A stretch of 64,000 bases of DNA from positions 17,325-81,324 of the forward strand of contig CBFGVH010000002.1 of assembly GCA_965652415.1 (NCBI GenBank), read 5' to 3'. Under the pieces are notes generated by a model that had not been told where the DNA came from, ran no database searches, and saw nothing but the letters and a program-made list of their open reading frames with translations. This stretch comes from an uncultured Gammaproteobacteria bacterium (GTDB taxonomy: Bacteria; Pseudomonadota; Gammaproteobacteria; Arenicellales; CAJQKF01). Positions 3,613-23,089 of this stretch are shown here, piece after piece. The position numbers and the translations under genes were made by a program. Every line of letters starts with the position of its first letter. Positions within the stretch are counted from its first letter, which is position 1.

Positions 3613-3687
3613 TGGTAGGCGCGAGTGGGATCGAACCACCGACCACTACCATGTCAAGGTAGTGCTCTACCACTGAGCTACGCGCCT
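3613..3687 (-). tRNA. tRNA-Val (anticodon GAC)
   Basis: Hand-folded cloverleaf from the reverse complement: AGGCGCG TA GCTC AGTGGTA GAGC A CTACC TTGACAT GGTAG TGGTC GGTGG TTCGATC CCACT CGCGCCT A CCA. Perfect 7-bp acceptor stem, encoded CCA. Confidence 0.9.
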
Positions 3688-6612: not shown

Positions 6613-6688
<76 letters not shown>

Positions 6689-8125: not shown

Positions 8126-8884
8126 TCAATCGGACCGAGGTGTACCGGCGGCCTCTATTCGGGCGGGGTGGACGACGATGCTGCGGCCCTCGAGGTGAAT
8201 CATGCCGCGATCCTCGAGCGTGTGCAGCACCTGGCCCGCCATCTCGCGCGAGCAGTTGACGATGCGGCCGAGTTCCTCGCGGGTGATCCGGATCATCTTG
8301 CCTTCCGGGTGGGTGATTGCGTCGCCGGCCCCGGCGAGCTCCATCAGTGTGCGGGCGATTCGTCCGGTGACGTCCAGGAAAGCCAGGTCGCTCAGCTTCT
8401 CGCTGGTCTTGCGCAGGCGCACCGCGAGCTGACGGGTGAGTTCCATGAGCAGGTCCGGGTCCTCGTGAATCAGGGCCCGGAACTGCGGAAACCCCACGAC
8501 GGCGAGTTCACAGTTGGTTCGCGCGATCACCGTGGCGCTGCGGCGGAGTCGTTCCTCGAACATGCCCATCTCGCCGAAGAACTCGCCCGGGTTGAGGTAG
8601 TGGAAAACCAGCCGCTGTCCGAGTTCGTTATAGACCTCCGCAGTCACCGAACCCCGCATGACATAGTACACTTCCTCGGACACCGTTCCCTGCTGAACGA
8701 TGATCTCCTTCGCCCGGTATTGCCGAAACACGGACGCAGCCAGCATTTTTCGAATCGGCGCAGGCGCCTCGGCGGGTTGTACGCGATAATTCAACCTTGT
8801 CTCTCTCTGTCGTTGTTGGTGTCGGCGCGATCCGTTGTGCCCCGGTTCGTCCTCGCATCGCGGCCATTCGAGTGACGGGTTCAA
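8126..8884 (-). CDS. crp: Crp/Vfr-like cAMP receptor transcription factor (start uncertain)
   Basis: Aligns by eye to E. coli CRP over its length: FGEMGMFEERLRRSATVIA (cAMP Glu/Arg/Ser), RLRKTSEKLSDLAFLDVTGRIARTL, and HTH ITREELGRIVNCSREMAGQVLHTLEDRGMI. The N-terminal 48 aa of the ORF look non-homologous. An alternative TTG lies near 8794. Confidence 0.8.
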   Translation of the reverse strand: MNPSLEWPRCEDEPGHNGSRRHQQRQRETRLNYRVQPAEAPAPIRKMLAASVFRQYRAKEIIVQQGTVSEEVYYVMRGSVTAEVYNELGQRLVFHYLNPGEFFGEMGMFEERLRRSATVIARTNCELAVVGFPQFRALIHEDPDLLMELTRQLAVRLRKTSEKLSDLAFLDVTGRIARTLMELAGAGDAITHPEGKMIRITREELGRIVNCSREMAGQVLHTLEDRGMIHLEGRSIVVHPARIEAAGTPRSD

Positions 8885-9188: not shown

Positions 9189-12100
9189 TTGTCGCTGGCC
9201 GCGCCACGGTCAGGATACCGGAATACACAGCCCGGAACACCATCGGACCGGCCTGCACAGAAGCGCGTCACGAGTCGGGCAGAACAACGATCAACGAGGA
9301 GGCAGGGCATCGCCACTAACAGACAATGCCGCGCGTGCGGCACGGGCAACGCCTCGACGGCCAGGTTCTGTCACGCCTGCGGCGAGCAGCTTGACATCAA
9401 TCAATGCCCGAGCTGCGGGGCGAGCAATCCCCACGGTGCGAATTTCTGCGTCAACTGCGGGCGCAAGCTCATCGTGTCGAGCGTGGAATCGATTGCCGCC
9501 CCGACGTTCGGCGAGGCTGAGCGCGGGGCGTTGCTCGGCTTCGGTGAGCGCCGCCACCTGACCATCATGTTCTGTGACATGGTCGGCTCGACACACCTGT
9601 CGAGCGTGCTCGATCCGGAAGAACTGCAGAGCCTGATCAGCGCATTTCACGACCACTGCTCGCGCATCGTCGACCGCTACGGCGGCCGGGTATACCAGTA
9701 TCTCGGCGACGGCGCCCTGGTGTACTTCGGCTACCCGGTGGCCCACGAGAACGATGCCGAACGCACCGTGCTGGCCGCGCTGGAGATCCTCGAGTCCATC
9801 GACCAGGTCGGCACCGACGCCGGGCGCGCTGCCGCGGGACCGATCGAGGCTCGCATAGGCATCGCCACCGGGCTGACCGTTGTCGGCCAGCGCGGCGGCC
9901 AGGCCGGGTTCCTGTCCGGGGTCACGCCCAACCTGGCCAGCCGGCTGCAGGCCCTGGCAGACCCGAACACGGCGTGCGTCTCCGACGCCACCCGGCGGAT
10001 CGTTCCGGAGTTGTTCGAATTTCGCGATCTCGGGGAGCACCGGCTCAAGGGCCTCGGCGAACCGGTCCGGGTGTGGCAGGTGGTCGGTCCGCGCGAGTTC
10101 GAGACCCGTTTCGACGCGCTGAGCAGCGCGTCGCTGACGCCGATGGTCGACCGCAGCGACGAACTCGAGGAGATGCGACTGTACTGGGAGCGCGCCCGCA
10201 CCGGAGACGGCCAGGTCGTGGTTCTGAGCGGCGAGCCGGGCATCGGCAAGTCGCGCCTGGCGCGGGAGTTCCGCCGCCAGATCGAAGTCTCGCCGCACAT
10301 GTGGCTGCGCTACCAGTGCATCCCTCATCACGTCAACACCGCGTACCACCCGCTGATCCAGCAGCTCAGGATCTCGGCGCGGATATCGCCCGTCGACAGC
10401 CCGCGCCTGCAGTTCGCCAAGCTTCAGCGACTGTTCTCGGCGATCGGCGTCGACTCCGCCGATTTCCTGCCGCTGTACGCCAACATTCTTTCCATTCCGG
10501 ACCGCGACACCTATTCCGCCCCCGCCGCCAGTCCCGAGCAGGAGCAGCGCAAGGTGTTCGACAGCTTCATCCGGGTGATCAAGTCCCTTGCCCAGCGCTC
10601 GCCGCTCGTGGTCCTGTTCGAGGACGTCCACTGGATCGATCCGACGACGCTTCGCCTGCTCAACCGCCTCGTGGCCGAATGCCGCAATCTGCCGCTGTTG
10701 CTCCTGATCACGGCCCGGCCCGAGTTCGATCCTCCGTGGATCGGCAGCCCCCACGTGCGCAGCATCCAGATCGGCCGGCTTTCCGGCAACCATGCACGGG
10801 ACCTGATCGTGCGGCTGCGCGGCGGCTCGCTGATGCCCGACGGCGTGCTGGCGAACATCGTCGAGACCACCGACGGCGTGCCGCTGTTTCTCGAGGAAAT
10901 CGGCCACATGCTGATCGGGTCCTCGCGGCCGGCCGCCGGCGGGGCCGTCGTGAACGGCAACGGCTTCGCGGTGCCGATCCCGGAAACCTTGCAGGACTCC
11001 CTGGTGGCGCGGCTCGACCGACTCGGGGACCGCGCCAAGTCCCTGCTCCAGGTCGCCAGCGTCGTCGGCCGGGAATTTCCGCGAAGGCTTCTCGTCGGGG
11101 TGTCGCCGTACGATGCGGAAACCACCGACTCGACGATGAAACGCCTGGTCAATTCCGGTCTCGTACAGTCCGAGGGCCGCGACGACAATGTCCATTACCT
11201 GTTCAAGCACTCGCTGATCCAGGAAGCCGCCTACCAGAGCATCCTCAAGACCGCCCGGCCGACGCTGCATCGGCGCATCTGCGAAACCATCGAGGGCGAT
11301 CCCGCACTGGCGCAGAGCATGAGTCTCGAGTTCCTGGCCTACCACAGCCTCGAAGCCGGGATGCGCCGCAGGGGCATCGACTACCTGCGCCGCGCCGGCC
11401 AGAGCGCCAGCGAGCGCTCCGCCAGCCAGGAGGCGGTGCACCACCTGAACCGGGCCCTGGAGTTGCTCGCGCTCGAACCCGAGGGTTCCGAGCGCGATCG
11501 CGACGAGCTGCAGATCCTGGTCGTCCTCGGTCCCGTGCTGATGGCGACGGAGGGCAGCGGCTCGGCCAGGACCACCGATATCTATCGGCGGGCGATGGAG
11601 CTGTGTGCGACGCTTCCGGAATCGCCGGAGCATTTCGCCGCCTCCTGGGGCTGGTGGCGCATCCACATGAACATGAATTTCACCGAGGGCCGCAAGTGGG
11701 CCGATCGACTGGTGGATCTGGCCGGCCGCCTCGACGACCCCGGGTTGCTGCTGCAGGCGCATCACTGCCAGTGGGCGACGCTGTTCAACATCGGCGAGCA
11801 AGTGGAATGCCTGCAGCATGTCGATCTCGGCCTGCCCCTTTATGATCCCGCGTTCCACCACCGTCACGCCTCGCTTTACGGCGGCCACGACCCGCAGGTG
11901 TGCGGTCTGGGGGAGAGCGCCCTGTCCTGCTGGCTGCTGGGCCGTCCCGAGCAGGCGGCTCGCTGCATCGCCGATGCCCTTGCCGCGGCCGAGCGCCTCG
12001 GTCACATCGGCAGCACCGCGCATGCCATGGACATCACCCTGATGCTCGACCGCTACCGCGATGACCCGGCCGCGGTACTGGAACGGTCGACGTCGATGAT

Positions 12101-12659
12101 CCGCTTCGCCTACCAGCAGTCGCTGCCCGACTATCGCGCCAAGGGCGAATTCTTCACCGGCTGGGCCCACGGCAAGCTGGTCGACGCGCGCGAGGGTATC
12201 GGCAAGATGAAGCTCGGCATGGACACCCTGCTGGCCATCGGGACGCGCGAGGACTTCCCGGTCTACTTCGACATGCTCGCCGAGATCTACGGCATCCTCG
12301 GCGAGCCGCGCCAGGGGCTCGAGGCCATCGGGCAGGCGTTCGAGGAGGCCGATCGCAGCGGTCTGCACTACTGGGACGCGGAACTGCACCGACGACGCGG
12401 CGAGCTGACCCGCATGCTTGCCGACGCCGATCCCGCCGAGTTCGAAGAGTGTTTCCACCGCGCCCTGGAAGTCGCACGCGCCCAGCAGACGCTGGCGCTG
12501 GAACTGCGCGCCGCGCGCAGCCTGGCGAGGGTCCACTTCGACCGCGGCGCCAGGAAAGAGGCGCTGACTCTGCTGGAGCCGGTCTACGCCAGGTTTTCCG
12601 AAGGCCTGGCGACGAACGAGCTGGTGAGCGCCGCGTCCCTGCTCAGGTCCCTGTCGTGA
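9189..12659 (+). CDS. double zinc-ribbon / class III adenylate-guanylate cyclase / STAND (AAA_16) ATPase / TPR protein
   Basis: - Zinc ribbons: CRAC-x10-CHAC and CPSC-x10-CVNC.
- Cyclase core: RRHLTIMFCDMVGST, YLGDGALVYFGYP, ARIGIATG, GVTPNLASRLQ.
- Walker A GEPGIGKS at 10230-10253.
- Long helical/TPR C-terminus.
- No in-frame ATG precedes the zinc ribbon. The track start is TTG 9189. A strong GAGGAGG (9296-9302) lies 6 nt before an in-frame ATC at 9309. Confidence 0.85.
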   Translation: MSLAAPRSGYRNTQPGTPSDRPAQKRVTSRAEQRSTRRQGIATNRQCRACGTGNASTARFCHACGEQLDINQCPSCGASNPHGANFCVNCGRKLIVSSVESIAAPTFGEAERGALLGFGERRHLTIMFCDMVGSTHLSSVLDPEELQSLISAFHDHCSRIVDRYGGRVYQYLGDGALVYFGYPVAHENDAERTVLAALEILESIDQVGTDAGRAAAGPIEARIGIATGLTVVGQRGGQAGFLSGVTPNLASRLQALADPNTACVSDATRRIVPELFEFRDLGEHRLKGLGEPVRVWQVVGPREFETRFDALSSASLTPMVDRSDELEEMRLYWERARTGDGQVVVLSGEPGIGKSRLAREFRRQIEVSPHMWLRYQCIPHHVNTAYHPLIQQLRISARISPVDSPRLQFAKLQRLFSAIGVDSADFLPLYANILSIPDRDTYSAPAASPEQEQRKVFDSFIRVIKSLAQRSPLVVLFEDVHWIDPTTLRLLNRLVAECRNLPLLLLITARPEFDPPWIGSPHVRSIQIGRLSGNHARDLIVRLRGGSLMPDGVLANIVETTDGVPLFLEEIGHMLIGSSRPAAGGAVVNGNGFAVPIPETLQDSLVARLDRLGDRAKSLLQVASVVGREFPRRLLVGVSPYDAETTDSTMKRLVNSGLVQSEGRDDNVHYLFKHSLIQEAAYQSILKTARPTLHRRICETIEGDPALAQSMSLEFLAYHSLEAGMRRRGIDYLRRAGQSASERSASQEAVHHLNRALELLALEPEGSERDRDELQILVVLGPVLMATEGSGSARTTDIYRRAMELCATLPESPEHFAASWGWWRIHMNMNFTEGRKWADRLVDLAGRLDDPGLLLQAHHCQWATLFNIGEQVECLQHVDLGLPLYDPAFHHRHASLYGGHDPQVCGLGESALSCWLLGRPEQAARCIADALAAAERLGHIGSTAHAMDITLMLDRYRDDPAAVLERSTSMIRFAYQQSLPDYRAKGEFFTGWAHGKLVDAREGIGKMKLGMDTLLAIGTREDFPVYFDMLAEIYGILGEPRQGLEAIGQAFEEADRSGLHYWDAELHRRRGELTRMLADADPAEFEECFHRALEVARAQQTLALELRAARSLARVHFDRGARKEALTLLEPVYARFSEGLATNELVSAASLLRSLS

Positions 12660-13900
12660 CCGTCGCCGGGACATTACCCGGCGATGCGCGCAAGCGCTAC
12701 TTTCGGGGCACCCATCGCACCGTGGAGCCGTCGCGAACGTTGTCCGTGGTCGCCCCCTTCCTCGGGGAGATGGGGATCACCCGTGTCGCAAACGTCACCG
12801 GCCTGGACCGGATCGGCATTCCCGTGTACACCGTGTGCCGGCCCAATTCCCGCTCGATTTCCGTGTGCCAGGGCAAGGGACTGGACGCCGACGCGGCCAG
12901 GGTGTCGGGCGTGATGGAGGCGGTGGAAACCTGGCACGCCGAGAACATCGCCCTGCCCGTCAGGCTGGGCAGCCGCGACGAGCTCCAGCGCGAACTGCCG
13001 CTGGTCGACGTCGATCGGCTACCGAAGTCGGTCGAAGAGCTCTACCGGCCGGATCGCCCCCTGCCGTGGGTCCAGGGCCAACGCTGGCCGGACGGCGCGC
13101 CGCTGTACGTGCCATTGGAGATCGTCAGCGCCGACTACACCCTGCCGCGCCTTCCCGGCAGCGGCTGCTTCGCCGCCAGCACCAACGGCCTGGCCTCGGG
13201 CAACACCCTCGCCGAGGCGGTGGCCCATGGGCTCTACGAGGTGATCGAGCGCGACGCCTCGACACTCTGGAGCCTGTCACGACCGCGCGCCAGGCATGAG
13301 CGCGGCGTGGACCCGGCCACCATCGACGACGACGATTGCCGCGCACTGCTGGCTCGTTTCGAACAGGCGGGGCTCGAAGTGCGGACCTGGGACGTGACCT
13401 CGGATGTCGGTATCGCGGTTTTCCTCTGTCTCGTGTTCTCGCGCGAGGCCGACGCATCGGATCCCGAGTTCGGCTGCGGCGCCCATCCCGCGAGGGAGAT
13501 CGCCCTGGCGCGGGCCCTCACCGAGGCCGCCCAGGCGCGCACCACGTTCATCGCCGGCTCCCGCGACGACTTCGACCCGGCGCTCTACGGCCGCGAGGCC
13601 CGCACCCGCCGGCGCGCATACTGCCTTGGCGAGGCGGCCCGTCACCGGCCGCTGCGTGCGTTCGCCGACACCCCCACCCGCAACGCCGACTCGATCGAGT
13701 CGGATCTCAACCACGCCCGCGAACGCCTGGCTCGCGCCGGGATGGACACAATCGTGGTCGTCGACCTGACCCGGGAGCCCCCGGGGATTCCGGTGGTCAG
13801 GGTGATCGTGCCGGGACTGGAAGGTCCGCGCGACCATGACGGCGCCGACTACGTGCCAGGCGAACGTGCCCGGGCGGCCGTCGCGGATCTGCCGTTGTGA
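12656..13900 (+). CDS. YcaO-domain protein (TfuA-associated type)
   Basis: Motifs: KRYFRGTHRTV, ITRVANVTGLDRIGIPVY, SGVMEAVETWHAE (S-x3-E-x2-E), GLYEVIERDA, GCGAHPAREIALARALTEAAQARTTFIAGSRDD. GTG 12656-12658 overlaps the cyclase stop TGA 12657-12659. The track ORF from 12449 overlaps the cyclase and is not used. Confidence 0.88.
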   Translation: MTVAGTLPGDARKRYFRGTHRTVEPSRTLSVVAPFLGEMGITRVANVTGLDRIGIPVYTVCRPNSRSISVCQGKGLDADAARVSGVMEAVETWHAENIALPVRLGSRDELQRELPLVDVDRLPKSVEELYRPDRPLPWVQGQRWPDGAPLYVPLEIVSADYTLPRLPGSGCFAASTNGLASGNTLAEAVAHGLYEVIERDASTLWSLSRPRARHERGVDPATIDDDDCRALLARFEQAGLEVRTWDVTSDVGIAVFLCLVFSREADASDPEFGCGAHPAREIALARALTEAAQARTTFIAGSRDDFDPALYGREARTRRRAYCLGEAARHRPLRAFADTPTRNADSIESDLNHARERLARAGMDTIVVVDLTREPPGIPVVRVIVPGLEGPRDHDGADYVPGERARAAVADLPL

Positions 13901-15252
13901 ATGTCGCGATCTTCGCCGGGCCGACCATCGACGTCGCCGCCGTGACCGCGGCAATCGACGCCGTGGTACTGCCGCCGGTCCGCCAGGGCGACGTCTACCG
14001 CCTGGTCGAGGCGCACGCGCCGCGCATGATCGGCATCGTCGACGGCTACTTCCACCAGGTTCCCTCGGTATGGCACAAGGAGATCCTGTGGGCCCTGTCC
14101 CGCGGCGTCGCCGTGTTCGGCAGCGCCAGCATGGGCGCGCTGCGCGCCGCCGAGCTCGCGTCCTTCGGCATGGTCGGCGTCGGGGTCGTCTACGAGGCAT
14201 ACCGGGACGGCCGCTTCGCACCCTACAACGACGCTTTCGAGCACGACGACGAGGTGGCGGTGATGCACGGCCCGGCGGAACTCGGCTACCCCGCCGTGTC
14301 CGAGGCCCTGGTCAACATTCGAACCACTCTCGACCGGGCCGAACGCGAGTCGGTGATCGACCCCGGTCAACGCGACGCGCTCAAGGACCTCGCCAGGTCC
14401 ATGTACTATGCCGACCGCACGTGGGAGTCGCTGCTGCAGGCGGCGCAGACCTTCGGGCTCGCATGTCCGTACGACCGTCTGAGCTCCTGGCTCGCCGGCG
14501 GGCGCGTGAATCGCAAGAGGCTCGACGCCGAGGCCATGATCGCGGCGATGAAATCCGCCACGGAGTCGATGCCGCAGAAGCCGCGGTTCCATTTCGAGCA
14601 CACCGGCCAGTGGCAGCGGATGATCGAAGGCATCCATGCCCGAACCGAAGCGGCGAATCCCGCGCTCGTGGAACTCGCCCTTCGCGGCGACGACTATATC
14701 GTCTGCCGCCGCCGCGCGGTGCGGCGGCTGCTGGCGCTGGATTCACCGGGGCGCGACGATGATGCCCTCGCCGATATTCGCGCGGTCCTCGAGTTGGCGC
14801 ATCCGGAACGTTCGGCACGACAGCTGAACGACATCCACCGCGATCCTGACCGCGTCGATGACCTGCTCGGCCGGGAGTTGGCCGCCCGTACACTCGAGTC
14901 CTGGGTTCGCGGCATCCCGGCGGATGTCATCGAGCGGCACATGGCAGCCGAGCTTCGCGACGACGGCCGGCTCGAGGAACTTCAGCGGCGGGCGGCGCAA
15001 AAGCGCGAGGTGCTCGATACCCTCGGCAACCCCCTTGCCGCCGCGGCGCTGAGGGGCCCCGAGGACCTCCAGCTGCTGGACTGGTACTTCGGGCGTCGCC
15101 TTGGCGCGGAGCTGCCCGACGATCTCGGCGAACATGCCCGGACACACGGGTTCACCGACGCCGAGGCATTGATCCAGGCCGTGTTCGACGAGTATCTTTT
15201 CACATCGAAACAGGACGACACCGGCGCGAGGACGGCTGGCGATGCTGTTTAA
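13897..15252 (+). CDS. TfuA-like protein with a roughly 200-aa C-terminal extension
   Basis: The N-terminal half carries the TfuA core (VLPPVRQGDVYRL, MIGIVDGYFHQVPSVWHKEILWALSRGVAVFGSASMGALRAAELASFGMVGVG). GTG 13897-13899 overlaps the YcaO stop 13898-13900. Residues from about 240 to 451 match no family I recognise. Confidence 0.85.
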   Translation: MNVAIFAGPTIDVAAVTAAIDAVVLPPVRQGDVYRLVEAHAPRMIGIVDGYFHQVPSVWHKEILWALSRGVAVFGSASMGALRAAELASFGMVGVGVVYEAYRDGRFAPYNDAFEHDDEVAVMHGPAELGYPAVSEALVNIRTTLDRAERESVIDPGQRDALKDLARSMYYADRTWESLLQAAQTFGLACPYDRLSSWLAGGRVNRKRLDAEAMIAAMKSATESMPQKPRFHFEHTGQWQRMIEGIHARTEAANPALVELALRGDDYIVCRRRAVRRLLALDSPGRDDDALADIRAVLELAHPERSARQLNDIHRDPDRVDDLLGRELAARTLESWVRGIPADVIERHMAAELRDDGRLEELQRRAAQKREVLDTLGNPLAAAALRGPEDLQLLDWYFGRRLGAELPDDLGEHARTHGFTDAEALIQAVFDEYLFTSKQDDTGARTAGDAV

Positions 15253-16450
15253 CGGCCTGGCTTTCGAGGAGACCGGAACTCGTTTCCGGCTCTATCCCCA
15301 GTCCCCGGTGCTCGACGAGTTCGCCGAGCCGGAAACGGTTTGGGTGTCCACGGCGCCCTGGGAGATCGAGCCGGGTCCGGCAGACGCGCGCATGTACGTG
15401 GTCGATGCCGTCGGCAAGGACGAGCCCTACGCCTTTCCCGCCCTGCCGCCGTGGCAAGGTCGGCGCCATCCCGAAGTGACCGCGGGTCCCGACGGTCACT
15501 TCGATCACCTGGCGGCCGACAGCCGCGAGTTCCGAGCCGCCCACATGTACGGCGTCATGCGCATGGTGCTGGACATCTGGGAAGGCTACTTCCAGCGCCG
15601 GATCGGGTGGCACTTCCAGGACGTGCTGCCGCGGCTCGAGCTGATTCCGTGGCTGCGGTGGAACAACGCCCAGGCCGGGTTCGGGTTCATCGAGACCGGG
15701 TATCGACTCGGGCCGGGCGGCGAGCGGGTGCCGCTCAGCCTCAACTTCGACGTGCTCGCCCACGAACTCGGTCACAGCATCCTCTACTCGGAACTGGGCC
15801 TGCCGGCCGATGGCGAGGCGAGCGCCGAGTACGTGGCTTATCACGAGTCCGCCAGCGACCTCGTCGCCATCATCTCCGTGCTGCATTTCGATTCCATCGT
15901 CGACCTGCTGCTCGAGCGCACTCGCGGCAACCTGTACGTGCGAAACGTCCTCAATCGCATCGGAGAGACCTCGCCCACCGAGCAGCTGCGACTCGCCAGC
16001 AACCGGCTGCGCATGCGCGACGTTCCTGATCGCGCGTCGCCGCTGGCGGCACTGTCCCAGCGCCAGCGCCACTTGCTCGGCGAACCGGTCACGGGCGCGG
16101 TGTTCGACATTCTCGTGGAAGTTTTCCAGCAGATGCTGGTCGATGAGGGGCTGATCAGCGAACACCTCGACGCCATCTCCCGCCGCGACGCCTGCAGCCA
16201 CCGCCTGGGGCCCAGTCAGGCAGGGTTCGACCGCGCCTGGGCCCGCGCACCCGCGGCGTTTAAGCGCGTTCTCGGCGAGGCGCGGGATTACATGGGGCAG
16301 GTGCTTGCCCTGTCGTGGGAGGAACTGGGTTTCGACCTGACCTTCGTCGACGTCGGCCGCGCCCTGCTGCGGGCCGACCTCGAGCTGTCGGGCGGCCGGT
16401 TTCATCCGGAGATACTCCAGTCCCTGGTGTGGCGCGAGATCGGAGAATGA
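15242..16450 (+). CDS. cytoplasmic zinc metalloprotease-like protein (HExxH...ExxxD, thermolysin/M4-like gluzincin motif)
   Basis: HELGH at 15761-15775, followed 23 residues later by HESASD (compare NEAxSD of M4). No signal peptide. The ATG overlaps the TfuA 3' end by 11 nt. GAGGA SD lies upstream. Confidence 0.65.
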   Translation: MLFNGLAFEETGTRFRLYPQSPVLDEFAEPETVWVSTAPWEIEPGPADARMYVVDAVGKDEPYAFPALPPWQGRRHPEVTAGPDGHFDHLAADSREFRAAHMYGVMRMVLDIWEGYFQRRIGWHFQDVLPRLELIPWLRWNNAQAGFGFIETGYRLGPGGERVPLSLNFDVLAHELGHSILYSELGLPADGEASAEYVAYHESASDLVAIISVLHFDSIVDLLLERTRGNLYVRNVLNRIGETSPTEQLRLASNRLRMRDVPDRASPLAALSQRQRHLLGEPVTGAVFDILVEVFQQMLVDEGLISEHLDAISRRDACSHRLGPSQAGFDRAWARAPAAFKRVLGEARDYMGQVLALSWEELGFDLTFVDVGRALLRADLELSGGRFHPEILQSLVWREIGE

Positions 16451-16546
16451 CGACCCCGCGCGCATCTGGACAACGCGTGCGGGCTGAACTAACCTGTCGA
16501 CCACGCGACGAATGACCGCGGCGCCCCACGCCGCAGAGGTGGAAGA

Positions 16547-17251
16547 ATGGCACTCGATCCGACCAACGACCTGTTCGAGGATCTCTACGAACCCACCAAG
16601 ATCTACCTGTTCGGGAAGCGATTCCAGAGCCTGTCGTTCAATATCGGTGACCTCGCGCTGACGCCGTACGCTCCATCGGACAAGGTGCCGAAAGAGCGTG
16701 ATGTTCCCATGCCGCCCCCACGGTGGGAACGAAGCCTGCGACGGCTCAGGGTGGACCAGGATGACGACAAGTGTCCGGACGCCGCGCAGCTGGCCCGTAT
16801 CTACAGCTTCTCGTTCGAGGGGCATTACTACAAGCTGCCGAAGCCGGTGATATACCTCGTCTGGGGCGAAGGCGAAGTACCGGAAGACGTTCCGACCGAA
16901 ACCGGTATTGCTCCTCCCCGCCGCGGAGTAGTCCCCGTTCGTGGCGCCGGAGATCCAACCTTCTTCACCGTGAATACCGGCATCGAGGGCAAGGCGTTCC
17001 GCTTCGCCTCCGACATCCGCGTCTGGAAGATGGACTGCCAGGACATGTCGGTGGCCATCGATCTCGAGGTCGGCGACATGAAGGACATCCTGCTGGCCCG
17101 CGTGATCGAGGAGCAGGAAGGCATGCGCGCCGCGGCTTCGTCGCGGGCGGCCGCTTCGTCGCGGGCCGCGGCGGCATCGCGGGCCGCAGCCGCATCGCGC
17201 GCAGCGGCGAGCTTCCGCGCCGCCATGATCGGCCCGCACCACGAGGACTGA
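16547..17251 (+). CDS. hypothetical protein with a C-terminal tandem hexapeptide repeat RAAA(A/S)S x5-6
   Basis: SD AGAGGTGGAAGA precedes the ATG. Strong third-position G/C bias in this frame. The C-terminus reads MRAAASS RAAASS RAAAAS RAAAAS RAAASF RAAMIGPHHED. I do not recognise the N-terminal 190 aa. Confidence 0.6.
   Translation: MALDPTNDLFEDLYEPTKIYLFGKRFQSLSFNIGDLALTPYAPSDKVPKERDVPMPPPRWERSLRRLRVDQDDDKCPDAAQLARIYSFSFEGHYYKLPKPVIYLVWGEGEVPEDVPTETGIAPPRRGVVPVRGAGDPTFFTVNTGIEGKAFRFASDIRVWKMDCQDMSVAIDLEVGDMKDILLARVIEEQEGMRAAASSRAAASSRAAAASRAAAASRAAASFRAAMIGPHHED
17126..17233 (+). repeat. 18-bp tandem repeat, five good units plus one degenerate, in frame within the 16547-17251 CDS
   Basis: Units read directly: CGCGCCGCGGCTTCGTCG / CGGGCGGCCGCTTCGTCG / CGGGCCGCGGCGGCATCG / CGGGCCGCAGCCGCATCG / CGCGCAGCGGCGAGCTTC / CGCGCCGCCATGATCGGC. 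Confidence 0.85.
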
Positions 17252-17439
17252 TCCCTTCCCCGGCGGCCGGCCCGCCAAGCGCATGCCGGCCGTGCCTTGT
17301 TCATGATCCCGGCTCGACCCGGGCGACAGGCGTTCGCTTGAGGCATTCTCCGCGCCGATTGCTTACAATCGACACACGTGTTCCGGCGCTCCGGCGCCGG
17401 AGCATCGTCGACGTGTTACGCCTTTAAGGAGAACGCCAG

Positions 17440-18258
17440 ATGCCCAATGCCCGCCGGCTCGTCGTCGCGCTGTCCGTCTCGCTGGTGATCGCGCTCGGCG
17501 CCGCGCCGGCCGCTGCTGCCGTGTCCATGCAGGTGTCGGACGGCATCGCGTCAATGCTCGACGGCGACGGACGACCGTTCGCCGGTGTTCGGGTCGACGT
17601 CATTTCCGCCGACGGCACCTTCGCCCGCCAGGGCACGACGGACGGCTCCGGTGGTATCTGCCTGCTGGCCGAGGGCGCCGCCGCACCGTCCGGACGGACC
17701 GACTGTATTATGCTTCCCAATGGCGAGTACCGGGTGTTCGTGGGCGAGGAGCAGCCAATCCGGATCTCGGTTGGCGCCGGAGCGGTCCGACCCTCCGGCC
17801 AGCAGGCGGAACCCGCGAGCGAGGAGAAGCCGCGCTCGCGAACCGCGTTGTGGGCCGGCGCCGCGGTGCTCGCGGTCGCCGGGCTGGCCGGCGGTGGTGG
17901 CGGCGGCGGATCCTCGGACGATGAACCGGACGAACCGGTAGACGTGGTCCGCGTCTCGGTGACGCCGCAGATGCTGACCGGAAGTTTCGAGCTCGGCACC
18001 AGCCCCTGTCCCACCACCATCGGCGACCTGTCCGTAGAGAACACCGGCGACGTCGCCGCACGGGTGACGGTGGTTCCCATCGAGGGCATCTCCACCACCG
18101 GCCAGGGGCAGTCGGTCGAGCCGGGAGACTCGGCCACGGTGACGGTTCTTTACAACTGCCTCGTGGTCGCGGCCATCGCCGGCACCATCGAGGTCGGACT
18201 GACCGACGACGGGCAGTCGGACAGCGACACCATCGAGATCCTCGTCGACTTCCAGTAG
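17440..18258 (+). CDS. secreted/membrane-anchored hypothetical protein with a carboxypeptidase-regulatory-like N-terminal domain
   Basis: - Signal peptide: MPNARRLVVALSVSLVIALGAAPAAAA.
- GVRVDVISADGTFARQGTTDGSGGICL...LPNGEYRVFV resembles a CarboxypepD_reg fold.
- Internal hydrophobic segment ALWAGAAVLAVAGLAGGGGGGGSSDDEPDEP.
- AAGGAGA SD upstream. Confidence 0.55.
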   Translation: MPNARRLVVALSVSLVIALGAAPAAAAVSMQVSDGIASMLDGDGRPFAGVRVDVISADGTFARQGTTDGSGGICLLAEGAAAPSGRTDCIMLPNGEYRVFVGEEQPIRISVGAGAVRPSGQQAEPASEEKPRSRTALWAGAAVLAVAGLAGGGGGGGSSDDEPDEPVDVVRVSVTPQMLTGSFELGTSPCPTTIGDLSVENTGDVAARVTVVPIEGISTTGQGQSVEPGDSATVTVLYNCLVVAAIAGTIEVGLTDDGQSDSDTIEILVDFQ

Positions 18259-18283
18259 GTTTCGCCAGCCATGCGGAGCCGAA

Positions 18284-19489
18284 TCATTCGTCGCGAATCG
18301 CCTCGGCCGGCGACACCCGCGCGGCTAGTCGCGCCGGCCACCACGAGAACAACGCCCCAAGCAGCAGCGCCACCAGTGTCGGTGCCAGCACGCTGATCCA
18401 GCCCGGCTGCGGCGTCAATGGCAATCGCGGCCCGGCGAGGGCGGTCAGCACGTGAGCGGCGACGGTTCCGACAACGCCCGCGGCCAGTGTCACCACCGCC
18501 GCCTCGACCACGAACAGTGCTGATACCTGGCTCCTGCGCGCGCCCAGCGAAAGCCTGAGCCCGATTTCCGGTATCCGCTCGCGAACGTTCAGCACCATCA
18601 GGCTCATCAGCGTGGTGCCGCCCAGCACCAGGCACAGCAGCGCCACGGTGCCGACCCCCAGCACCACCGCGCGGCGCAGCGACTCGAGGTCGGCTACCAG
18701 CCGGCGCGCGGTCACCCAGCTCAATTCGCCGGCATTGACGCCCGGTTGCGCCAACAGGCGGCCGAGACGCCGCGCGAGGCTCTCGGCATCGCCTCCACCT
18801 GCGACGAGGATTTGTTCCACGCGACGGCCGCGGGCGCCGGGCAGGCCTCGGGCCGCCGCCGCCGACGACCACGGGACCAGCACGAAACGCTCGCCGAGGG
18901 TGCGCCCCCGGACGCCGTCGCCGGCATTGGCGGCCGGCGCGTCCACCACGCCCACGATGGTGAACGGGACGTCGTCCAGCATCGCGATGCTCCCCGTTCG
19001 CCAGTCGAAATCGCGGGCCAGCGCACGACTCGCCAGCGCCACGCGGCCCTGCTCGCGAACGTCGCGCGCATCGAGGTTGCGGCCATCGATAATGGTCCAG
19101 CCGCGCATGGGGACCAGCTCCGCGTCGGTGGCGATCACGGTCAGCGGGTTGTCCCGCCCGAGCATCTCCGAGCGGTAGTGAGTGAGCGTAGCGACATCGA
19201 CCCCCTGGAAATTGCGGCGAACGAGATCGGCATGCTGGATGCCCAGGCCGTCTGCCGATCCATCGAGCGCGTCTTCGCGCCCGATGGACACGACATCGGC
19301 GCCGAACTCGGCGGTGACGGCGTCGATCCGCTGTTGCAGGGCGGTCACCACGAGAACCAGGATCGCAAATGCCATGACGCCGACTGCGACCGCGAACGCG
19401 GCCAGGGCATGGCGCCCGCCGTGCCCTCTGAAGCCTTCGGCGAGGTCGCTTGCGAGCCGCGCGCCGCGCATCGGCAGCGGGGTCAACAT
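18284..19489 (-). CDS. ABC transporter permease, FtsX/MacB type
   Basis: 401 aa. N-terminal TM helix, a large periplasmic domain, then three C-terminal TM helices (MacB/FtsX topology). Overlaps the upstream ATPase gene by 7 nt. Confidence 0.85.
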   Translation of the reverse strand: MLTPLPMRGARLASDLAEGFRGHGGRHALAAFAVAVGVMAFAILVLVVTALQQRIDAVTAEFGADVVSIGREDALDGSADGLGIQHADLVRRNFQGVDVATLTHYRSEMLGRDNPLTVIATDAELVPMRGWTIIDGRNLDARDVREQGRVALASRALARDFDWRTGSIAMLDDVPFTIVGVVDAPAANAGDGVRGRTLGERFVLVPWSSAAAARGLPGARGRRVEQILVAGGGDAESLARRLGRLLAQPGVNAGELSWVTARRLVADLESLRRAVVLGVGTVALLCLVLGGTTLMSLMVLNVRERIPEIGLRLSLGARRSQVSALFVVEAAVVTLAAGVVGTVAAHVLTALAGPRLPLTPQPGWISVLAPTLVALLLGALFSWWPARLAARVSPAEAIRDE

Positions 19490-20154
19490 GGTCGCGCATC
19501 CGCGCCGGTGAAGGCGCCGTCGACAAGTTTCATGTGGCGCGAGCCGTGGCGCAGCAAGTCGAGGTTGTGAGTCGCCATGAGGATGGTCATGCCGTCCTGG
19601 TGGAGGCGGCCGAAGACCTCCATCACCCGGCGCGCCGCCTCGCGGTCGAGGTTTCCGGTCGGTTCGTCGGCCACCAGCAGCCTCGGACTCGCGGCGATGG
19701 CGCGGGCGATCGCCACGCGCTGCATCTCACCGCCCGAAAGCACCCGCGCCGGGCGATCCGACAATGCGTCGATACCGACCCTGGCGAGCGCTTCGCGCGC
19801 CAGGCGTTCGGCGTCGCCGCGGGCACGGTCGGTGTAACGAAACCTGAACATGACATTCTCCAGCACGCTGCGCCGCGGCAGCAGCGCGTAGCGCTGGAAC
19901 ACGATGCCCACGGCGCGCGCACGCGCCAGGCTCAACGCGCGTTCGCTCGAGCGGGAGAGGTCCTCGCCCATGAACGCCAGGGCGCCGGCCGTGGGCGCGT
20001 CGAGCAGCGCCGACAGGTGCAGCAGCGTGCTCTTGCCCGAGCCGGACGGCCCGGTCACCATGACGAATTCACCCGCGTCGATGACGAGATCGACGCCCCG
20101 CAGCGCCTCGACCCGGGCGTGCCCCGATCCGAATGCCTTGCGTACGCCGTCCAT
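19483..20154 (-). CDS. ABC transporter ATP-binding protein (MacB/LolD-like)
   Basis: 223 aa from ATG 20152-20154. Motifs: Walker A GPSGSGKST, signature LSGGEMQR, Walker B LLVADEPT. An in-frame TTG at 20173-20175 would overlap the adaptor stop (TTGA). The rest of the 620-aa track ORF is out-of-frame read-through over the adaptor gene. Confidence 0.9.
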   Translation of the reverse strand: MDGVRKAFGSGHARVEALRGVDLVIDAGEFVMVTGPSGSGKSTLLHLSALLDAPTAGALAFMGEDLSRSSERALSLARARAVGIVFQRYALLPRRSVLENVMFRFRYTDRARGDAERLAREALARVGIDALSDRPARVLSGGEMQRVAIARAIAASPRLLVADEPTGNLDREAARRVMEVFGRLHQDGMTILMATHNLDLLRHGSRHMKLVDGAFTGADARPC

Positions 20155-20171
20155 GGCGAGCACCGGGGCGG

Positions 20172-21404
20172 TCAATCCACGACCACCCGGTCGCCGGGCG
20201 CGAGGCCCGCGACCACCTCGTAGTGGGTGAGGTTGGCTCGGCCGACTGAAACCTCGCGCCACTCGGGCGTGCCGTCGACGAGAACGCGGGCTCGCGGTTC
20301 GCCGCCGCCGAAGCGCACGGCGCGGCGCGGCACCAGCACGGCGTCTTCGGCGAAATACGATTGCACCTGTACCACCACCGACATGCCGGGCCGGATTCGC
20401 GGGTCGTTCGTCTCGATGCGCACCACGACGTGGAAGAACTTCTGCCGGTCGGGCTTGCCGGGGACCGACTGCGCCACGGCACCGACCGTTTCCACGTGTC
20501 CGTCGAAGCGCAGGTCCGGATAGGCCAGCGGCTGAACCAGCGCGGGAGCGCCGTGCGCCACTGTGTTGAGTTCCGCCTCGGGTACGTCGAGCACGGCCAC
20601 CAGGTCGGACATGTCGGGCAGGATCATGAACGGCTGGTTCGGGTACAGCGTGTCGCCGACGCGAACCCGCCTGAACTCGTTGCCGATGCCGAGCGGCTTG
20701 TAGACGACGACGCCGCCGGCTGGAGCGCGGATCACCGAGCTGGCGAGCTGCTCGCGGGCCACGGCGAGCGACTGCTCCGCCGAGGCCACGGTCGTTCGCG
20801 CCTTGGCCAATGCCGCCGGGTGCAGGTAGTCCCGGGTCAGCCTGTATTCGAGCTCGGCCTTGTCCACCTCGGCATCGAGGCTCGCCACCTTGCGCCGCTG
20901 CTGCTCGACCTCCTGGGCCGACAGCATGCGGTCGCGCATCAGGGCCTCGGAGTCGTCGAGGTAGGCGCGCTCGGCGTCGCGCTTGCGGCGGGACTCGTCG
21001 AGAGCCAGTTCGAGTTCCTTGAGTTCCAGCGGCAGGCGGGCGTGCTCGAGACTCTCGAGTTCGCTGCGGGCGATGGCCAGTTCCTGCTCCAGCTTCATGA
21101 TGCGGGCCCGGATCTCGCTGGCGTCGAACCGGGCGAGGACGTCGCCGGGGGCGACGGTGGCGCCCTCCTCCACCAGTTCGACCAGCGTGGCCGGGCCCTG
21201 GAAGCGCGAGGCCACGCTGACCATGTGACGCGACTCGATCACGCCGTCGTGGGCGCTGAGCACGGACAGCTCGCCGCGGGTGACCATCGTGGTGGAGACA
21301 TCGGCGGGCAGGTCGCGTGTCGTGGTGGTGTCCCTGAACGACCACGCCAGGGTGGCAGCGCCGGCGGCGAGTACGAGCACTGCGAGCCAGCGCACGGCGC
21401 TCAT
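20172..21404 (-). CDS. HlyD/MacA-family periplasmic adaptor subunit
   Basis: 410 aa. N-terminal anchor MSAVRWLAVLVLAAGAATLA, a long coiled-coil hairpin, then beta-barrel and MP domains. ATGA overlap with the upstream TolC-family gene. Confidence 0.85.
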   Translation of the reverse strand: MSAVRWLAVLVLAAGAATLAWSFRDTTTTRDLPADVSTTMVTRGELSVLSAHDGVIESRHMVSVASRFQGPATLVELVEEGATVAPGDVLARFDASEIRARIMKLEQELAIARSELESLEHARLPLELKELELALDESRRKRDAERAYLDDSEALMRDRMLSAQEVEQQRRKVASLDAEVDKAELEYRLTRDYLHPAALAKARTTVASAEQSLAVAREQLASSVIRAPAGGVVVYKPLGIGNEFRRVRVGDTLYPNQPFMILPDMSDLVAVLDVPEAELNTVAHGAPALVQPLAYPDLRFDGHVETVGAVAQSVPGKPDRQKFFHVVVRIETNDPRIRPGMSVVVQVQSYFAEDAVLVPRRAVRFGGGEPRARVLVDGTPEWREVSVGRANLTHYEVVAGLAPGDRVVVD

Positions 21405-22810
21405 TGGAGCGCCTCCGGGGCGAGCATCGCCGGGTACTCGATCAGCACGCCGATGGTGTGCAGGAACCTCCAGGCCGCCAGCGTCGCATCGGTCTCGCCC
21501 GCCAGCAGGCGGCTCTCGGCATCCAGGTACGCCTCCTCGGCGTCGGTCACGGAGAAGTTGTCGGTGCGACCGCTCTCGAACAGGCGGCGCGCAAGTTCCA
21601 GCCGCGCCGAGGCGTGATCGAGATTCGACTCGAAGGTGGCCAGATCCGCGCGCGCGCGCCGGTAGGCGAGCATGGACTGGCGCACCTCGCGCGAGATCCC
21701 GAGTTGCACCACCCGGATCCGCTGCTCGGCCGACACCTCCTCCAGCCTCGCCTGCTCGAGGTCGATGCGCGCCGCCCGGTCGTTGAGATCGGTTTCGCCC
21801 CGCACCCCCACGAACCAGCGGCTGCGGTCGCCGCCGAAGAACGTCAGCGGCTTGTCGGCGCGCTCGTAGCGGCCGGTCAGGGTGACGTCCGGCAGGAGCA
21901 GGTTCTCCGCGATGCGGGCCCCGCGCACGGCGTCGTCGCGATCCTGCAGGGCCTGGGCATAGTCGAGACGATTATCCAGCGCGCGCTCGACCGCCTCGTG
22001 GGAGGTCGGCAGGTCGATGGAAAAGATCCCCGTCGGTTCCAGTGCCAGAACGATGTCCGGGTCCAGCCCCAGCAGTTCGGCCAGCGCCTGCCGCTCGGAT
22101 TCGAGCCGTTCCGTATTGGCCGCAAGGCGCGAGCGCGCCAGTCCCTGCTGCAGCTCGACGCGCAGCGAATCGATGCGCGTCGAGCGCCCCAGAGCCTCCT
22201 TGGCGCGGGTGCTGCGCAGCAGCTCCTCGGCGCGATCGAGCGACTCGCGGTCGGCGGCCACCTGGCGCTCGAAGCGCAGTATGCTCTCGTAGGATTCGAT
22301 GACGTCGAGAACCAGGTCGGAGCGGCGCGCGAAGTACAGTCGTTCGCTGCGGCGCAGCGCGCTAGTCGCGCGCACCACCGGCTCTTCGTTGACCAGGCGG
22401 CCGAAGCGCCGGAACAGCGGCTGGTTGAACTCGATGGCAAGCCGCGCGCGGCGGCCGAGGGAACGGTCGAAATCGTCGCTGGTCACGGTCGCGGACAGGC
22501 GCGCGCCGGTGCCGAAGCGCTTCGACGTCTCGAGCCCGTAGCGAGACGTGGTTTCGTCGTCGAGGGTCCCGATTTCCAGCACGGGCCGCACCTCGATATC
22601 GAAGCTGGACTCGGCCCGTTCCACTGCCAGGCTCGCGCCCTTGACGTCGAGAATATCCAGTACCAGCGAACGGTTCTGCCAGACGGCCAGCTCGATGGCA
22701 CGGTCGAGATCGAGACGGTAGGGTTGCGCCGCGGCAACCGATTGCCCCGCCGCGAGACACGAGATCGCCAGGGCGGCGATCGAGCGGGACAGCACGTTTG
22801 TTGGGCGCAT
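21401..22810 (-). CDS. TolC-family outer membrane efflux protein
   Basis: Start chosen at ATG 22808-22810, giving signal peptide MRPTNVLSRSIAALAISCLAAGQSVAAAQ. Two repeated TolC-type coiled-coil/beta halves. Confidence 0.85.
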   Translation of the reverse strand: MRPTNVLSRSIAALAISCLAAGQSVAAAQPYRLDLDRAIELAVWQNRSLVLDILDVKGASLAVERAESSFDIEVRPVLEIGTLDDETTSRYGLETSKRFGTGARLSATVTSDDFDRSLGRRARLAIEFNQPLFRRFGRLVNEEPVVRATSALRRSERLYFARRSDLVLDVIESYESILRFERQVAADRESLDRAEELLRSTRAKEALGRSTRIDSLRVELQQGLARSRLAANTERLESERQALAELLGLDPDIVLALEPTGIFSIDLPTSHEAVERALDNRLDYAQALQDRDDAVRGARIAENLLLPDVTLTGRYERADKPLTFFGGDRSRWFVGVRGETDLNDRAARIDLEQARLEEVSAEQRIRVVQLGISREVRQSMLAYRRARADLATFESNLDHASARLELARRLFESGRTDNFSVTDAEEAYLDAESRLLAGETDATLAAWRFLHTIGVLIEYPAMLAPEALQ

Positions 22811-23089
22811 CGACGAACCGGAACACGATGGAGTAATGATTCGGCGCGGCGGCGCCGGCGATGTCAGGACCGATCGGGTCGCGCTGTCCATGTCGCGCCA
22901 CATCGGCCGCTTCAATCATACCGGGCGAGGCAGGCACGGGAAAGGATGCGCCGATGCTTGCGGCAGCGTCGCAAAAAACACTCTGCCGGGCTTTACCTTC
23001 TTGATTATCCGATGATTTCTGATAACCTTGGGCGGCATAACAAAACCTGCTCATCGTACTTCTGAACGCCCACCGGGAGGAATCGCGCA

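Follow-up and report, generated by a model that had tools for sequence, protein, structure and literature searches.

What does a bacterial cell do with a protein that ends in a row of near-identical hexapeptides and is encoded directly behind enzymes of the thioamide-forming kind? The question is raised by the open reading frame (ORF) at 16547-17251 (+) of a 64,000-nucleotide stretch of DNA from an uncultured gammaproteobacterium of the Arenicellales (contig CBFGVH010000002.1; this whole stretch is called the window below). The ORF encodes 234 aa and its C-terminus reads GM-RAAASS-RAAASS-RAAAAS-RAAAAS-RAAASF-RAAMIG-PHHED-stop. A first-pass annotation had proposed that this tail is the substrate of a neighboring YcaO/TfuA pair, with the regularly spaced Arg residues as cleavage sites for a neighboring metalloprotease. 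Here we find that the protein belongs to a large family whose lineage-specific units are kept constant within each array by selection, and that its gene is linked to those of YcaO, a long TfuA, a thermolysin-like peptidase and a nucleotidyl cyclase. The reading that we favor, and to which we give about an even chance, is that the repeat protein is a multi-core substrate with a leader-like domain, which would be thioamidated and cut into short Arg-containing peptides.

Anatomy of the repeat protein and selection on its units

The protein consists of a conserved N-terminal domain at residues 1-193 (16547..17125, +), delimited by profile search, alignment and AlphaFold2 and presumably the leader-like or docking part, and of six tandem 18-nt units at 17126..17233 (+), whose coordinates and translation agree with the first-pass annotation. 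The terminal variant unit continues into a subfamily end motif (FRAAMIGPHHED, 17213..17248, +), assigned by the family pattern F-R-x-x-[MVIL]-[VIL]-G-[PA]-H-Q-[DEN], which is kept at the C-terminus across proteins with unrelated units. Tandem Repeats Finder reported a period of 18 at 17125-17187 (82% matches, score 77) and a period of 36 at 17121-17209 (score 101). Within the 36-residue tail, period-6 self-matches numbered 24 of 30, a value that no shuffle of the residues attained in 100,000 trials. There are three nucleotide differences between units 1 and 2 and two between units 3 and 4, with no residue changed in either pair. Since these differences are confined to the nucleotides and the peptide stays the same, the array is an old, diverged coding repeat and not a product of slippage or assembly stutter, as had already been argued from its synonymous and Ala/Ser differences; an independent metagenome contig (L015, Ga0079224_100026068) carries the repeat gene with an identical protein. 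The reading frame, originally backed by third-position G/C bias, is borne out by the GC content at the three codon positions (0.66/0.48/0.79) and by full-length homologue alignments starting at Met1, and a GAGG Shine-Dalgarno sequence lies 5' of the ATG. A 694-aa antisense ORF at 15200-17284 (-) was rejected as a high-GC artefact; the homologues back the plus-strand frames. The tail contains no Cys, and its repeat units contain no Pro.

A word-indexed search returned eight homologues of the repeat protein, all of the same architecture, and a profile search of 1.84 billion representatives extended these to 468 clusters at 50% identity (E<=1e-3; 305 of them at E<=1e-10); profile positions ~90-200 form the core. 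The Proteobacteria in which members occur live in soil, the rhizosphere, fresh water and the sea. The conserved core spans ~110 residues (ARIYSFSYEGxYYxLPxP ... DIRVWxYDKxDxxxRxDxExGxxExxLL); G109 and W160 are invariant in the N-terminal domain, and 14 more columns are at least 90% conserved, including A83, R84, I85, Y86, D163, D166, D172 and G176. This domain found no match in Pfam, NCBIfam, PDB or BFVD, and a literature search that included the literal unit sequences, and had most subscription journals outside its scope, turned up no published description of the family. In some long members (P0061, P0079 and P0127 with 410-420 aa; P0044 and P0086 with 295-312 aa), the first beta-strand and the conserved core are separated by an additional domain of 100-250 residues, for which a Pfam scan gave no match.

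The tails, by contrast with the domain before them, hardly resemble one another between lineages. Clear tandem units end 120 of 157 family sequences, the rest being mostly degenerate arrays, single units, fragments and frameshifts. Altogether 169 proteins yielded 93 different consensus units, such as RGAAAS, RVSGA, RMAMAS, RGKMAS, RGDMSS, RGMNA and RVSGAHA, with lengths of five (21 unit types), six (45), seven (21) and eight (5) residues. Exactly one basic residue is present in 77/93 unit types; it is preceded by A/S/G in 78/93 and followed by G/A/S/V in 77/93, so that a kernel of the form small-Arg-small is common to the family. Across the 120 arrays, A, G, R, S, V and M dominate the repeat residues, the fraction of Pro rounds to 0.0, and Cys amounts to ~0.001. 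The number of copies varies from about 1 to 9 (1.5-9.4 in arrays), and in the close relatives P0007, P0001 and P0004 the SRMAMx units number 4, 5 or 6, which answers a check that the first-pass annotation had suggested: repeat number varies and the N-terminal domain is kept. A few units lack a basic residue, among them GGGAY, repeated nine or more times at contig ends (L071 and L081), and GAGAF/GAAVS (P0108).

How these units evolve is seen most directly within single arrays. Between adjacent units of 70 arrays from the fetched loci, the proportion of differing synonymous sites (pS) was 0.61 and that of nonsynonymous sites (pN) was 0.072, a ratio of 0.12. In an array of six SGARV units (L011) there were 22 synonymous and 2 nonsynonymous differences, and in one of seven AYSGGK units (L087) there were 17 and 0. 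Because synonymous sites differ at 61% and nonsynonymous sites at about 7%, selection maintains the peptide of each copy: the copies within an array are kept identical as peptides, while lineages differ wholly in the peptide that is kept. Such constancy would be natural for copies that each serve as a product or binding unit; it would not be expected of a spacer or low-complexity linker.

This bears on the simplest alternative, that the tail is structural or binds nucleic acid as a low-complexity segment unrelated to the enzymes, whether as an Ala-rich amphipathic helix, an AlgP-like tail or a pentapeptide beta-helix. AlphaFold2 gave the repeat protein a confident beta-rich N-terminal core and a helix (178-207) that enters the first repeats, as a helical tail would have it, yet residues 206-234 had pLDDT <50 and were modeled as disordered. 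Pfam Pentapeptide matched 7 of 136 members, all with five-residue units of the SGARV/SGAKV type (best 4.4e-8), but the window protein has no Pfam match and its tail has a period of six, so that we rejected it as a pentapeptide-repeat protein. Unit lengths of 5, 6, 7 and 8 would not be tolerated by any single periodic fold. Likeness to the basic, Ala-rich AlgP repeats is set aside on similar grounds, as there is one Arg per 5-8 residues here and an Asp or Glu offsets its charge in 28/93 unit types, leaving these charge-neutral. The AlgP-like or amphipathic-helix alternative raised in the first-pass annotation is thereby disfavored, and together with the tight, reciprocal linkage to enzymes described below, which argues against independence, this makes a purely structural tail highly improbable.

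Enzymes encoded with the repeat gene and their recurrence

The repeat gene closes an operon in the order STAND-type cyclase, YcaO, long TfuA, peptidase, repeat gene. The YcaO gene (12656..13900, +), apparently of the thioamide type, matches Pfam YcaO PF02624 at 7.7e-86 (288.8 bits; cut-off 25.7). It is listed as an ORF from 12449; the likely start is the GTG at 12656, which overlaps the cyclase stop (GTGA) and gives 414 aa, and the homologues have 401-434 aa. The TfuA gene (13897..15252, +; Pfam TfuA PF07812, 6.5e-46, 155.4 bits, cut-off 30) encodes 451 aa, with the TfuA domain at about residues 1-230 followed by an extension of ~220 aa, in which a Pfam scan found no significant family. The best NCBIfam match of YcaO was the McrA-glycine thioamidation YcaO (3.5e-70, 236.9 bits against a cut-off of 365), and that of TfuA was the TfuA-related thioamidation protein (1.5e-57, 194.4 bits against a cut-off of 235.2). 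With both scores below the curated cut-offs, membership in McrA-glycine thioamidation (TIGR03266, NF033432) was rejected, and the pair appears by sequence to be of the thioamide-forming type without being orthologous to the McrA enzymes. The resemblance to the McrA thioglycine and uL16 systems extends to a substrate that is a folded protein of more than 200 aa, if the repeat protein is the substrate here. Apart from the low scores (237 vs 365 bits for YcaO, 194 vs 235 bits for TfuA), the difference is that the thioamide is known at a single site there (PMC13063428), whereas a repeat array is found here. The uL16-modifying YcaO has no TfuA partner (PMC13063428).

The peptidase gene (15242..16450, +) encodes 402 aa with HELGH at residues 174-178 and, 24 residues on, HESASD at 201-206; an alignment of 45 homologues shows no variation at H174, E175, H178, E202 and D206. 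The AlphaFold2 model (pLDDT 83, pTM 0.87) was matched by Foldseek against PDB to thermolysin (4tnl; E 6.8e-5, probability 1.00, TM-score 0.48/0.60) and the M36 protease 7qp3 (TM-score 0.55), and M36 fungalysins and aureolysin also reached a probability of 1.00. No sequence match was found in Pfam (M4 and M36 included), NCBIfam or PDB. Since fold and motif fit thermolysin and the sequence models do not match, the peptidase is best placed in a separate, unnamed family with a predicted thermolysin-like fold. This family has at least 1166 clusters at 90% identity, and every named member is called "hypothetical protein". With thermolysin (M4) and fungalysin (M36) the window peptidase shares HExxH, an ExxxD ~20-24 residues later and a TM-score of 0.5-0.6; it differs from them in its ~14% identity, in having neither a signal peptide nor a propeptide, and in lying inside a YcaO/TfuA operon. 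The protein that had been called a metalloprotease is therefore a credible zinc metallopeptidase, by its invariant HExxH/E/D residues and its predicted thermolysin/M36-like fold.

While the first-pass annotation had named YcaO, TfuA and the metalloprotease correctly, it had missed the cyclase and the linked regulator. The former, a STAND-type class III nucleotidyl cyclase (9327..12659, +), matches Pfam Guanylate_cyc (2e-17), AAA_16 (2.4e-23), DZR (1.5e-10) and, weakly, TPR_12, and is laid out as a double zinc ribbon, a cyclase domain, an AAA_16 NTPase and a TPR/helical sensor. Its ORF is listed from 9189; the ATG at 9327 is the likely start, and the DZR match begins at listed residue 47. Divergent from the operon is the gene for a CRP/FNR-type regulator (8126..8884, -; Pfam cNMP_binding 1.6e-20, HTH_Crp_2 2.3e-9). 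No CRP site of the E. coli type (TGTGA-N6-TCACA) lies between the regulator gene and the operon, and matches to this E. coli-type consensus across the window number 4 against 13 expected by chance. The cyclase and YcaO genes overlap at stop and start, YcaO and TfuA by 4 nt, and TfuA and the peptidase gene by 11 nt, and these overlapping stop and start codons suggest translational coupling of the first four genes; a 96-nt gap precedes the repeat gene. Scans for promoters and terminators gave counts not above chance, and a weak hairpin lies at 17281-17295, 3' of the repeat gene.

To what extent does this arrangement recur? The loci compared comprise 6 genome loci (Arenicellales, Poriferihabitaceae and marine gammaproteobacterial metagenome-assembled genomes (MAGs)), 80 metagenome loci, and loci from plasmids and exact-protein look-ups. 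Presence and absence of genes were called by tblastn (E<=1e-5), and most contigs are short. The metagenome loci are the best 80 of 289 matches, closest to the window protein, with distant branches under-sampled. YcaO and the long TfuA were found upstream in 28/28 distinct non-Rhizobium loci with at least 3 kb of upstream sequence, in addition to the window, and on 11 further truncated contigs the TfuA end lies at the contig edge. Within these loci, homologues of the repeat protein are not located mostly away from YcaO/TfuA genes, the Rhizobium branch excepted, and those beside YcaO/TfuA genes keep both the N-terminal domain and a repeat tail. Wherever a locus includes 1.6 kb or more of upstream sequence, the peptidase gene is the next gene upstream, Paracoccus being the exception. 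All loci with flanks long enough to include the usual site of the cyclase have one, Rhizobium and Paracoccus included. It is either a ~600-aa CHD-TPR protein or of the STAND type, which is encoded upstream in the same direction or downstream in convergent orientation. One locus (L017, 462-10155) has both types, the STAND cyclase upstream of YcaO and the CHD-TPR cyclase downstream of the repeat gene. By tblastn, 14 other loci have a homologue of the CRP-type regulator at a distance of 0.1-2.5 kb from the cluster, and gene calls or annotations place such regulators in L001, L100 and L103 as well. The reverse test started from the peptidase: all three loci collected in this way contain it together with YcaO, TfuA and, downstream, a member of the repeat-protein family. 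Two of these members are intact and have a repeat tail, and the one in L102 is frameshifted. The TfuA extension is kept in all related loci, and among 380 TfuA-matching plasmids it was covered in three, all of Paracoccus; judging from these sequences, the long TfuA is specific to the repeat-protein type of cluster.

The Rhizobium and Paracoccus copies, which are located on plasmids or megaplasmids, each lack part of the set. Family members occur on 49 Rhizobium plasmids. Six inspected loci contain the genes for a cyclase-TPR protein, the peptidase, a repeat protein with SRSGGAL units and a 110-aa protein, and no YcaO or TfuA lies within 10 kb. In two of the six, the cyclase and peptidase matches are fragmented; of these two records one is unannotated, and the other shows no coding sequences at that place, which would agree with decay. 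P. denitrificans and P. kondratievae have the cyclase-TPR protein, YcaO, the long TfuA and a repeat protein with 2-3 units, and no peptidase; a Crp/Fnr regulator is also present in P. kondratievae. Because Rhizobium is without YcaO/TfuA and Paracoccus without the peptidase, neither thioamidation nor the peptidase is universal.

An Arenicellales-type contig (L001) that carries the main cluster also contains a paralogous one at 15239-18635 (-), with YcaO, a short TfuA (257 aa, without the extension), a 376-aa HExxH peptidase homologue and a 96-aa protein. This last protein has no N-terminal domain and presents three KKMQMR[GQ]RMV[AS]SD cores between acidic spacers, the cores resembling the SRGRMAS and SRQRMVGAHQD units of the main family. 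A homologue search for it found none, and its layout is that of a classical small multi-core precursor. In this single case, the TfuA extension seems to accompany substrates with an N-terminal domain and to be absent without one.

Sequence conservation within the module is uneven. The peptidase shows 54% identity and YcaO 52%, with the TfuA core within 52-54%, and the cyclase sensor region shows 42%. The TfuA extension, at 29%, is the fastest-evolving enzyme part, followed by the cyclase NTPase module (37%) and the repeat-protein N-terminal domain (39%). Hypervariable units with a constant basic residue and an A/S/G before it would fit one recognition point for highly conserved enzymes, and the fast evolution of the TfuA extension supports its proposed pairing with the N-terminal domain.

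A multi-core substrate and its alternatives

We propose that the N-terminal domain docks the repeat protein on the enzymes, possibly on the C-terminal extension of TfuA. YcaO, with sulfide supplied by TfuA, would then convert at least one backbone amide per unit to a thioamide, which, if thiovarsolin with its Pro-Arg bond is a guide, might lie at the small residue that precedes Arg. From the tail, the cytoplasmic zinc peptidase would free one short Arg-containing (thio)peptide in several copies. The cyclase and CRP-type pair would tie the module to cyclic-nucleotide signaling, either switching the operon on or sensing its product. What recommends this reading is the reciprocal linkage to YcaO, TfuA and the peptidase, the types of these enzymes, the selection on the units, the variation in copy number, the layout of the second cluster on L001, and the precedent of VarA. 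Azoline chemistry on Cys is excluded because the tail has no Cys. For the same reason the analogy to thioviridamide that had been drawn earlier fails: the tail is not a thioamitide precursor, in which a single core bears consecutive thioamides and offers Cys/Ser/Thr for AviCys formation, as it has no Cys and is a multi-unit array. Nor did Pfam scans of the ORFs at 7.6-27.4 kb find lanthipeptide-type enzymes.

The closest known system is the thiovarsolin pathway. In Streptomyces varsoviensis, the precursor VarA has up to five repeats, and YcaO and TfuA (VarY/VarT) thioamidate the Pro-Arg bond of each (PMC6511847); the thioamide thus lies on the bond before Arg, and several small peptides arise from one precursor (PMC6511847). 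Like VarA, the window protein ends in imperfect C-terminal repeats with one Arg each, the number of repeats varies (one to five in VarA relatives, ~1-9 here), and the genes of a YcaO-TfuA pair are adjacent. The parallel drawn in the first-pass annotation therefore holds for the repeated units; it does not hold for the core, as the APR/GPR sequence is absent and Pro is practically missing from the repeats. The systems also differ in the conserved folded N-terminal domain of ~190 aa here as opposed to a short leader, in the additional ~220-aa domain of TfuA, in the dedicated thermolysin-like peptidase (the thiovarsolin cluster has no protease), and in the linked cyclase and CRP-type regulator. 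Conversely, the heme-oxygenase-like VarO, the ATP-grasp enzyme and the amidinotransferase are absent from the repeat-protein cluster, and the hosts are mostly Proteobacteria instead of Actinobacteria. Membership in the trifolitoxin/tiarin family was rejected, since the TfxB/TfxC dehydrogenases that define it are absent here. We keep tiarins as a loose analogy; their Arg-containing warhead inhibits arginyl-tRNA synthetase (bioRxiv 10.64898/2025.12.02.691738).

Multi-copy precursors cut by a dedicated protease are familiar from the fungal Kex2-processed ustiloxin and phomopsin precursors, yeast alpha-factor and cyanobactin PatE. They share with the repeat protein near-identical cores in one polypeptide, bounded by a basic or conserved recognition residue, and a unit sequence and number that vary between species with the rest conserved. 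Their processing is secretory or of the subtilisin type, whereas here it would be cytoplasmic and due to a thermolysin-like metalloenzyme; the likeness is one of function and not of homology. As to the point of cleavage, the Arg residues are a guess; thermolysin-type enzymes usually select a hydrophobic P1' residue.

Several observations weigh against the substrate reading. Thioamidation and cleavage of the tail are suggested by gene neighborhood alone, in a set of loci biased toward relatives of the window protein through the choice of the best 80 of 289 metagenome matches. The leader-like domain of ~190 aa is far larger than the usual leaders of peptides that are made on ribosomes and modified after translation. 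A few members have a single unit, or units without a basic residue, as in the GGGAY arrays of L071 and L081. By sequence, the conserved proteins carry no signal peptide, and no exporter is conserved across the loci. Finally, the six Rhizobium and two Paracoccus loci indicate that the thioamidation enzymes and the peptidase are dispensable, leaving the cyclase as the only constant partner. The earlier proposal that the tail is the YcaO/TfuA substrate consequently gains from the linkage in non-Rhizobium loci, and it loses from the Rhizobium branch the idea that thioamidation is obligatory.

That last observation is the main attraction of a different mechanism, in which the tail stays on the protein and serves the cyclase as a multivalent ligand or regulates it. 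Through binding of the units or the end motif to the TPR/STAND sensor, cyclase domains would be drawn together; thioamidation would tune the interaction, the peptidase would end it, and a CRP-type regulator would read the resulting cyclic nucleotide monophosphate (cNMP). Class III cyclases need dimerization and STAND proteins oligomerize on ligand binding, in keeping with such a mechanism. The cyclase is the sole partner found in every assessable locus, including those of Rhizobium and Paracoccus, a CRP-type regulator adjoins in the window and at least 17 other loci, and the conserved components all appear to be cytoplasmic. Moreover, the class of the tail tracks that of the cyclase: six-residue units with a GPHQ[DE]-type end, or tails with ITRDPHRNR/IDRDR, occur with STAND cyclases, and five- or seven-residue units with an end of the form ...RGxxGxSD occur with CHD-TPR cyclases. 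This match may, however, reflect shared descent, and the cyclase sensor, at 42% identity, does not co-diversify with the hypervariable units. The mechanism also leaves two things unexplained, the near-universal and highly conserved peptidase and the small multi-core peptide (96 aa) of the second L001 cluster, beside which no separate cyclase gene lies. On balance we consider a role of the attached tail unlikely, though it is the foremost alternative to the substrate reading.

Other peptide-sensing systems offer partial parallels. As with RRNPP-type TPR receptors and STAND cyclase regulators (such as the mycobacterial cyclase-ATPase-TPR proteins), a sensor gene lies beside a gene for short lineage-specific peptides, and a second-messenger or transcriptional output is encoded nearby. 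Unlike RRNPP-type systems, the module has no secretion signal, its candidate receptor is a cyclase instead of a transcription factor or phosphatase, and an oligopeptide importer is adjacent in one locus only (L102).

The same cyclase could also be read as an invader sensor, in a conflict module of the anti-phage or abortive-infection kind. Upon sensing an invader, the STAND cyclase would make cNMP, and Arg peptides with a toxic or inhibitory effect would be freed by the peptidase from a multi-copy precursor kept in store, the diversification of the units being an arms race. A STAND NTPase joined to a cyclase weakly similar to those of Pycsar (PycC 6.9e-12), the extreme diversity of units between lineages, and the plasmid or megaplasmid location of the Rhizobium and Paracoccus copies would suit such a role. 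Similarity to PycC is nonetheless expected of any class III cyclase domain, and the reader of the cNMP is a CRP-type transcription factor and not an effector. The chromosomal neighbors are housekeeping genes (thymidylate synthase, gyrB, recG, spoT) and not defense islands. Identity with a known anti-phage system was rejected in PADLOC, where the cyclase domain alone resembles PycC, and weakly, and the repeat protein, peptidase, YcaO and TfuA match no model. We regard a defensive function as very unlikely.

A further suggestion concerns the use of the product more than the way it is made, which is itself a point against treating it as a separate mechanism: the thioamidated peptide or tail might be chalkophore-like and bind metal, its thioamide sulfur and, in many relatives, Met residues (as in SRMAMA) chelating soft metals such as Cu(I). 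Copper is bound by thioamides in natural products already described, the SRMAMA units of Arenicellales-type marine homologues are rich in MxM, and one locus is near genes for a copper-type P-type ATPase and FixH/FixS. By contrast, Met, His and Cys are all missing from the RAAASS and RAAAAS units of the window, side chains that could serve as metal ligands are absent from most unit types, and no metal transporter or regulator is conserved across the loci. Metal binding is, in our view, very doubtful.

Flanking genes and the meaning of the module

The window has a GC content of ~67%, and the nearest named relatives of its proteins come from gammaproteobacterial and Nitrospiraceae MAGs. Two ORFs of 272 aa (+) and 237 aa (-) overlap at 17424-18258, directly 3' of the repeat gene; no Pfam family matched either, and among the other loci homologues were found only on the duplicate contig L015. 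Downstream of and convergent with the repeat gene, at 18284-22915 (-), are the genes for a MacAB-TolC-like exporter, comprising an FtsX/MacB permease, an ABC ATPase, an HlyD-type adaptor and an outer-membrane factor. We rejected it as a conserved component, since among the fetched repeat-protein loci it recurs only on L015. On plasmid pAMI4 of Paracoccus aminophilus (L104), MacB-type genes lie beside a YcaO/long-TfuA pair, with no repeat protein detected. An ATP-grasp gene of the L-amino-acid-ligase type (23687-24985, -; ATP-grasp_4 3e-27, LAL_C2 1.9e-15) lies a few kb off, and two tRNA genes, at 3616-3687 (-) and 6613-6685 (+), are the sole Rfam matches in the window.

Elsewhere in the family, the 110-aa protein of the Rhizobium loci (9498-9830 in L013; also L095-L099) is encoded directly after the repeat gene and is absent from loci that contain YcaO/TfuA; a Pfam scan gave it no family match. 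Genes for 5-oxoprolinase (PxpA/B/C) lie just downstream in L102 (6519-14609) and in the Rhizobium loci L013 (14690-18399) and L097 (11119-15842), with biotin-carboxylase genes near them in the Rhizobium loci; in L102, the repeat gene is followed at once by an Opp-type ABC importer for oligopeptides. The recurrence of the 5-oxoprolinase genes may reflect either shared ancestry of the loci or a functional link.

Taking the parts together, the module could be a self-contained intracellular circuit of peptides and cyclic nucleotides of an undescribed kind, a proposal that we consider improbable though with a real chance of being right. Stored, identical, short lineage-specific peptides may be written and released by YcaO/TfuA and the cytoplasmic metallopeptidase, or else the attached multivalent tail may act. 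The TPR/STAND sensor may read the peptide or tail and make cNMP for the dedicated CRP-type regulator. The cyclase and the repeat protein may form the core, with thioamidation and proteolysis as modulators that were dropped in Rhizobium and Paracoccus.

Standard annotation leaves the repeat protein and the peptidase unnamed because neither is covered by a Pfam or NCBIfam model, and PADLOC has no model for them either. If the multi-core substrate reading is right, a large family has been overlooked, with 468 precursor clusters at 50% identity and more than 1100 peptidase clusters. Thioamide-type multi-core precursors would then exist that have a folded leader domain, a TfuA that probably docks the substrate, and a cytoplasmic thermolysin-like maturation protease. 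The link to the cyclase and the CRP-type regulator is the most conserved feature, suggesting that the modified peptides may be inputs to a second messenger and not antibiotics. Members are present in genetically tractable bacteria, and Paracoccus denitrificans, with YcaO/TfuA and no peptidase, and Rhizobium leguminosarum and R. ruizarguesonis, with the peptidase and no YcaO/TfuA, would serve as natural knock-outs of the two activities.

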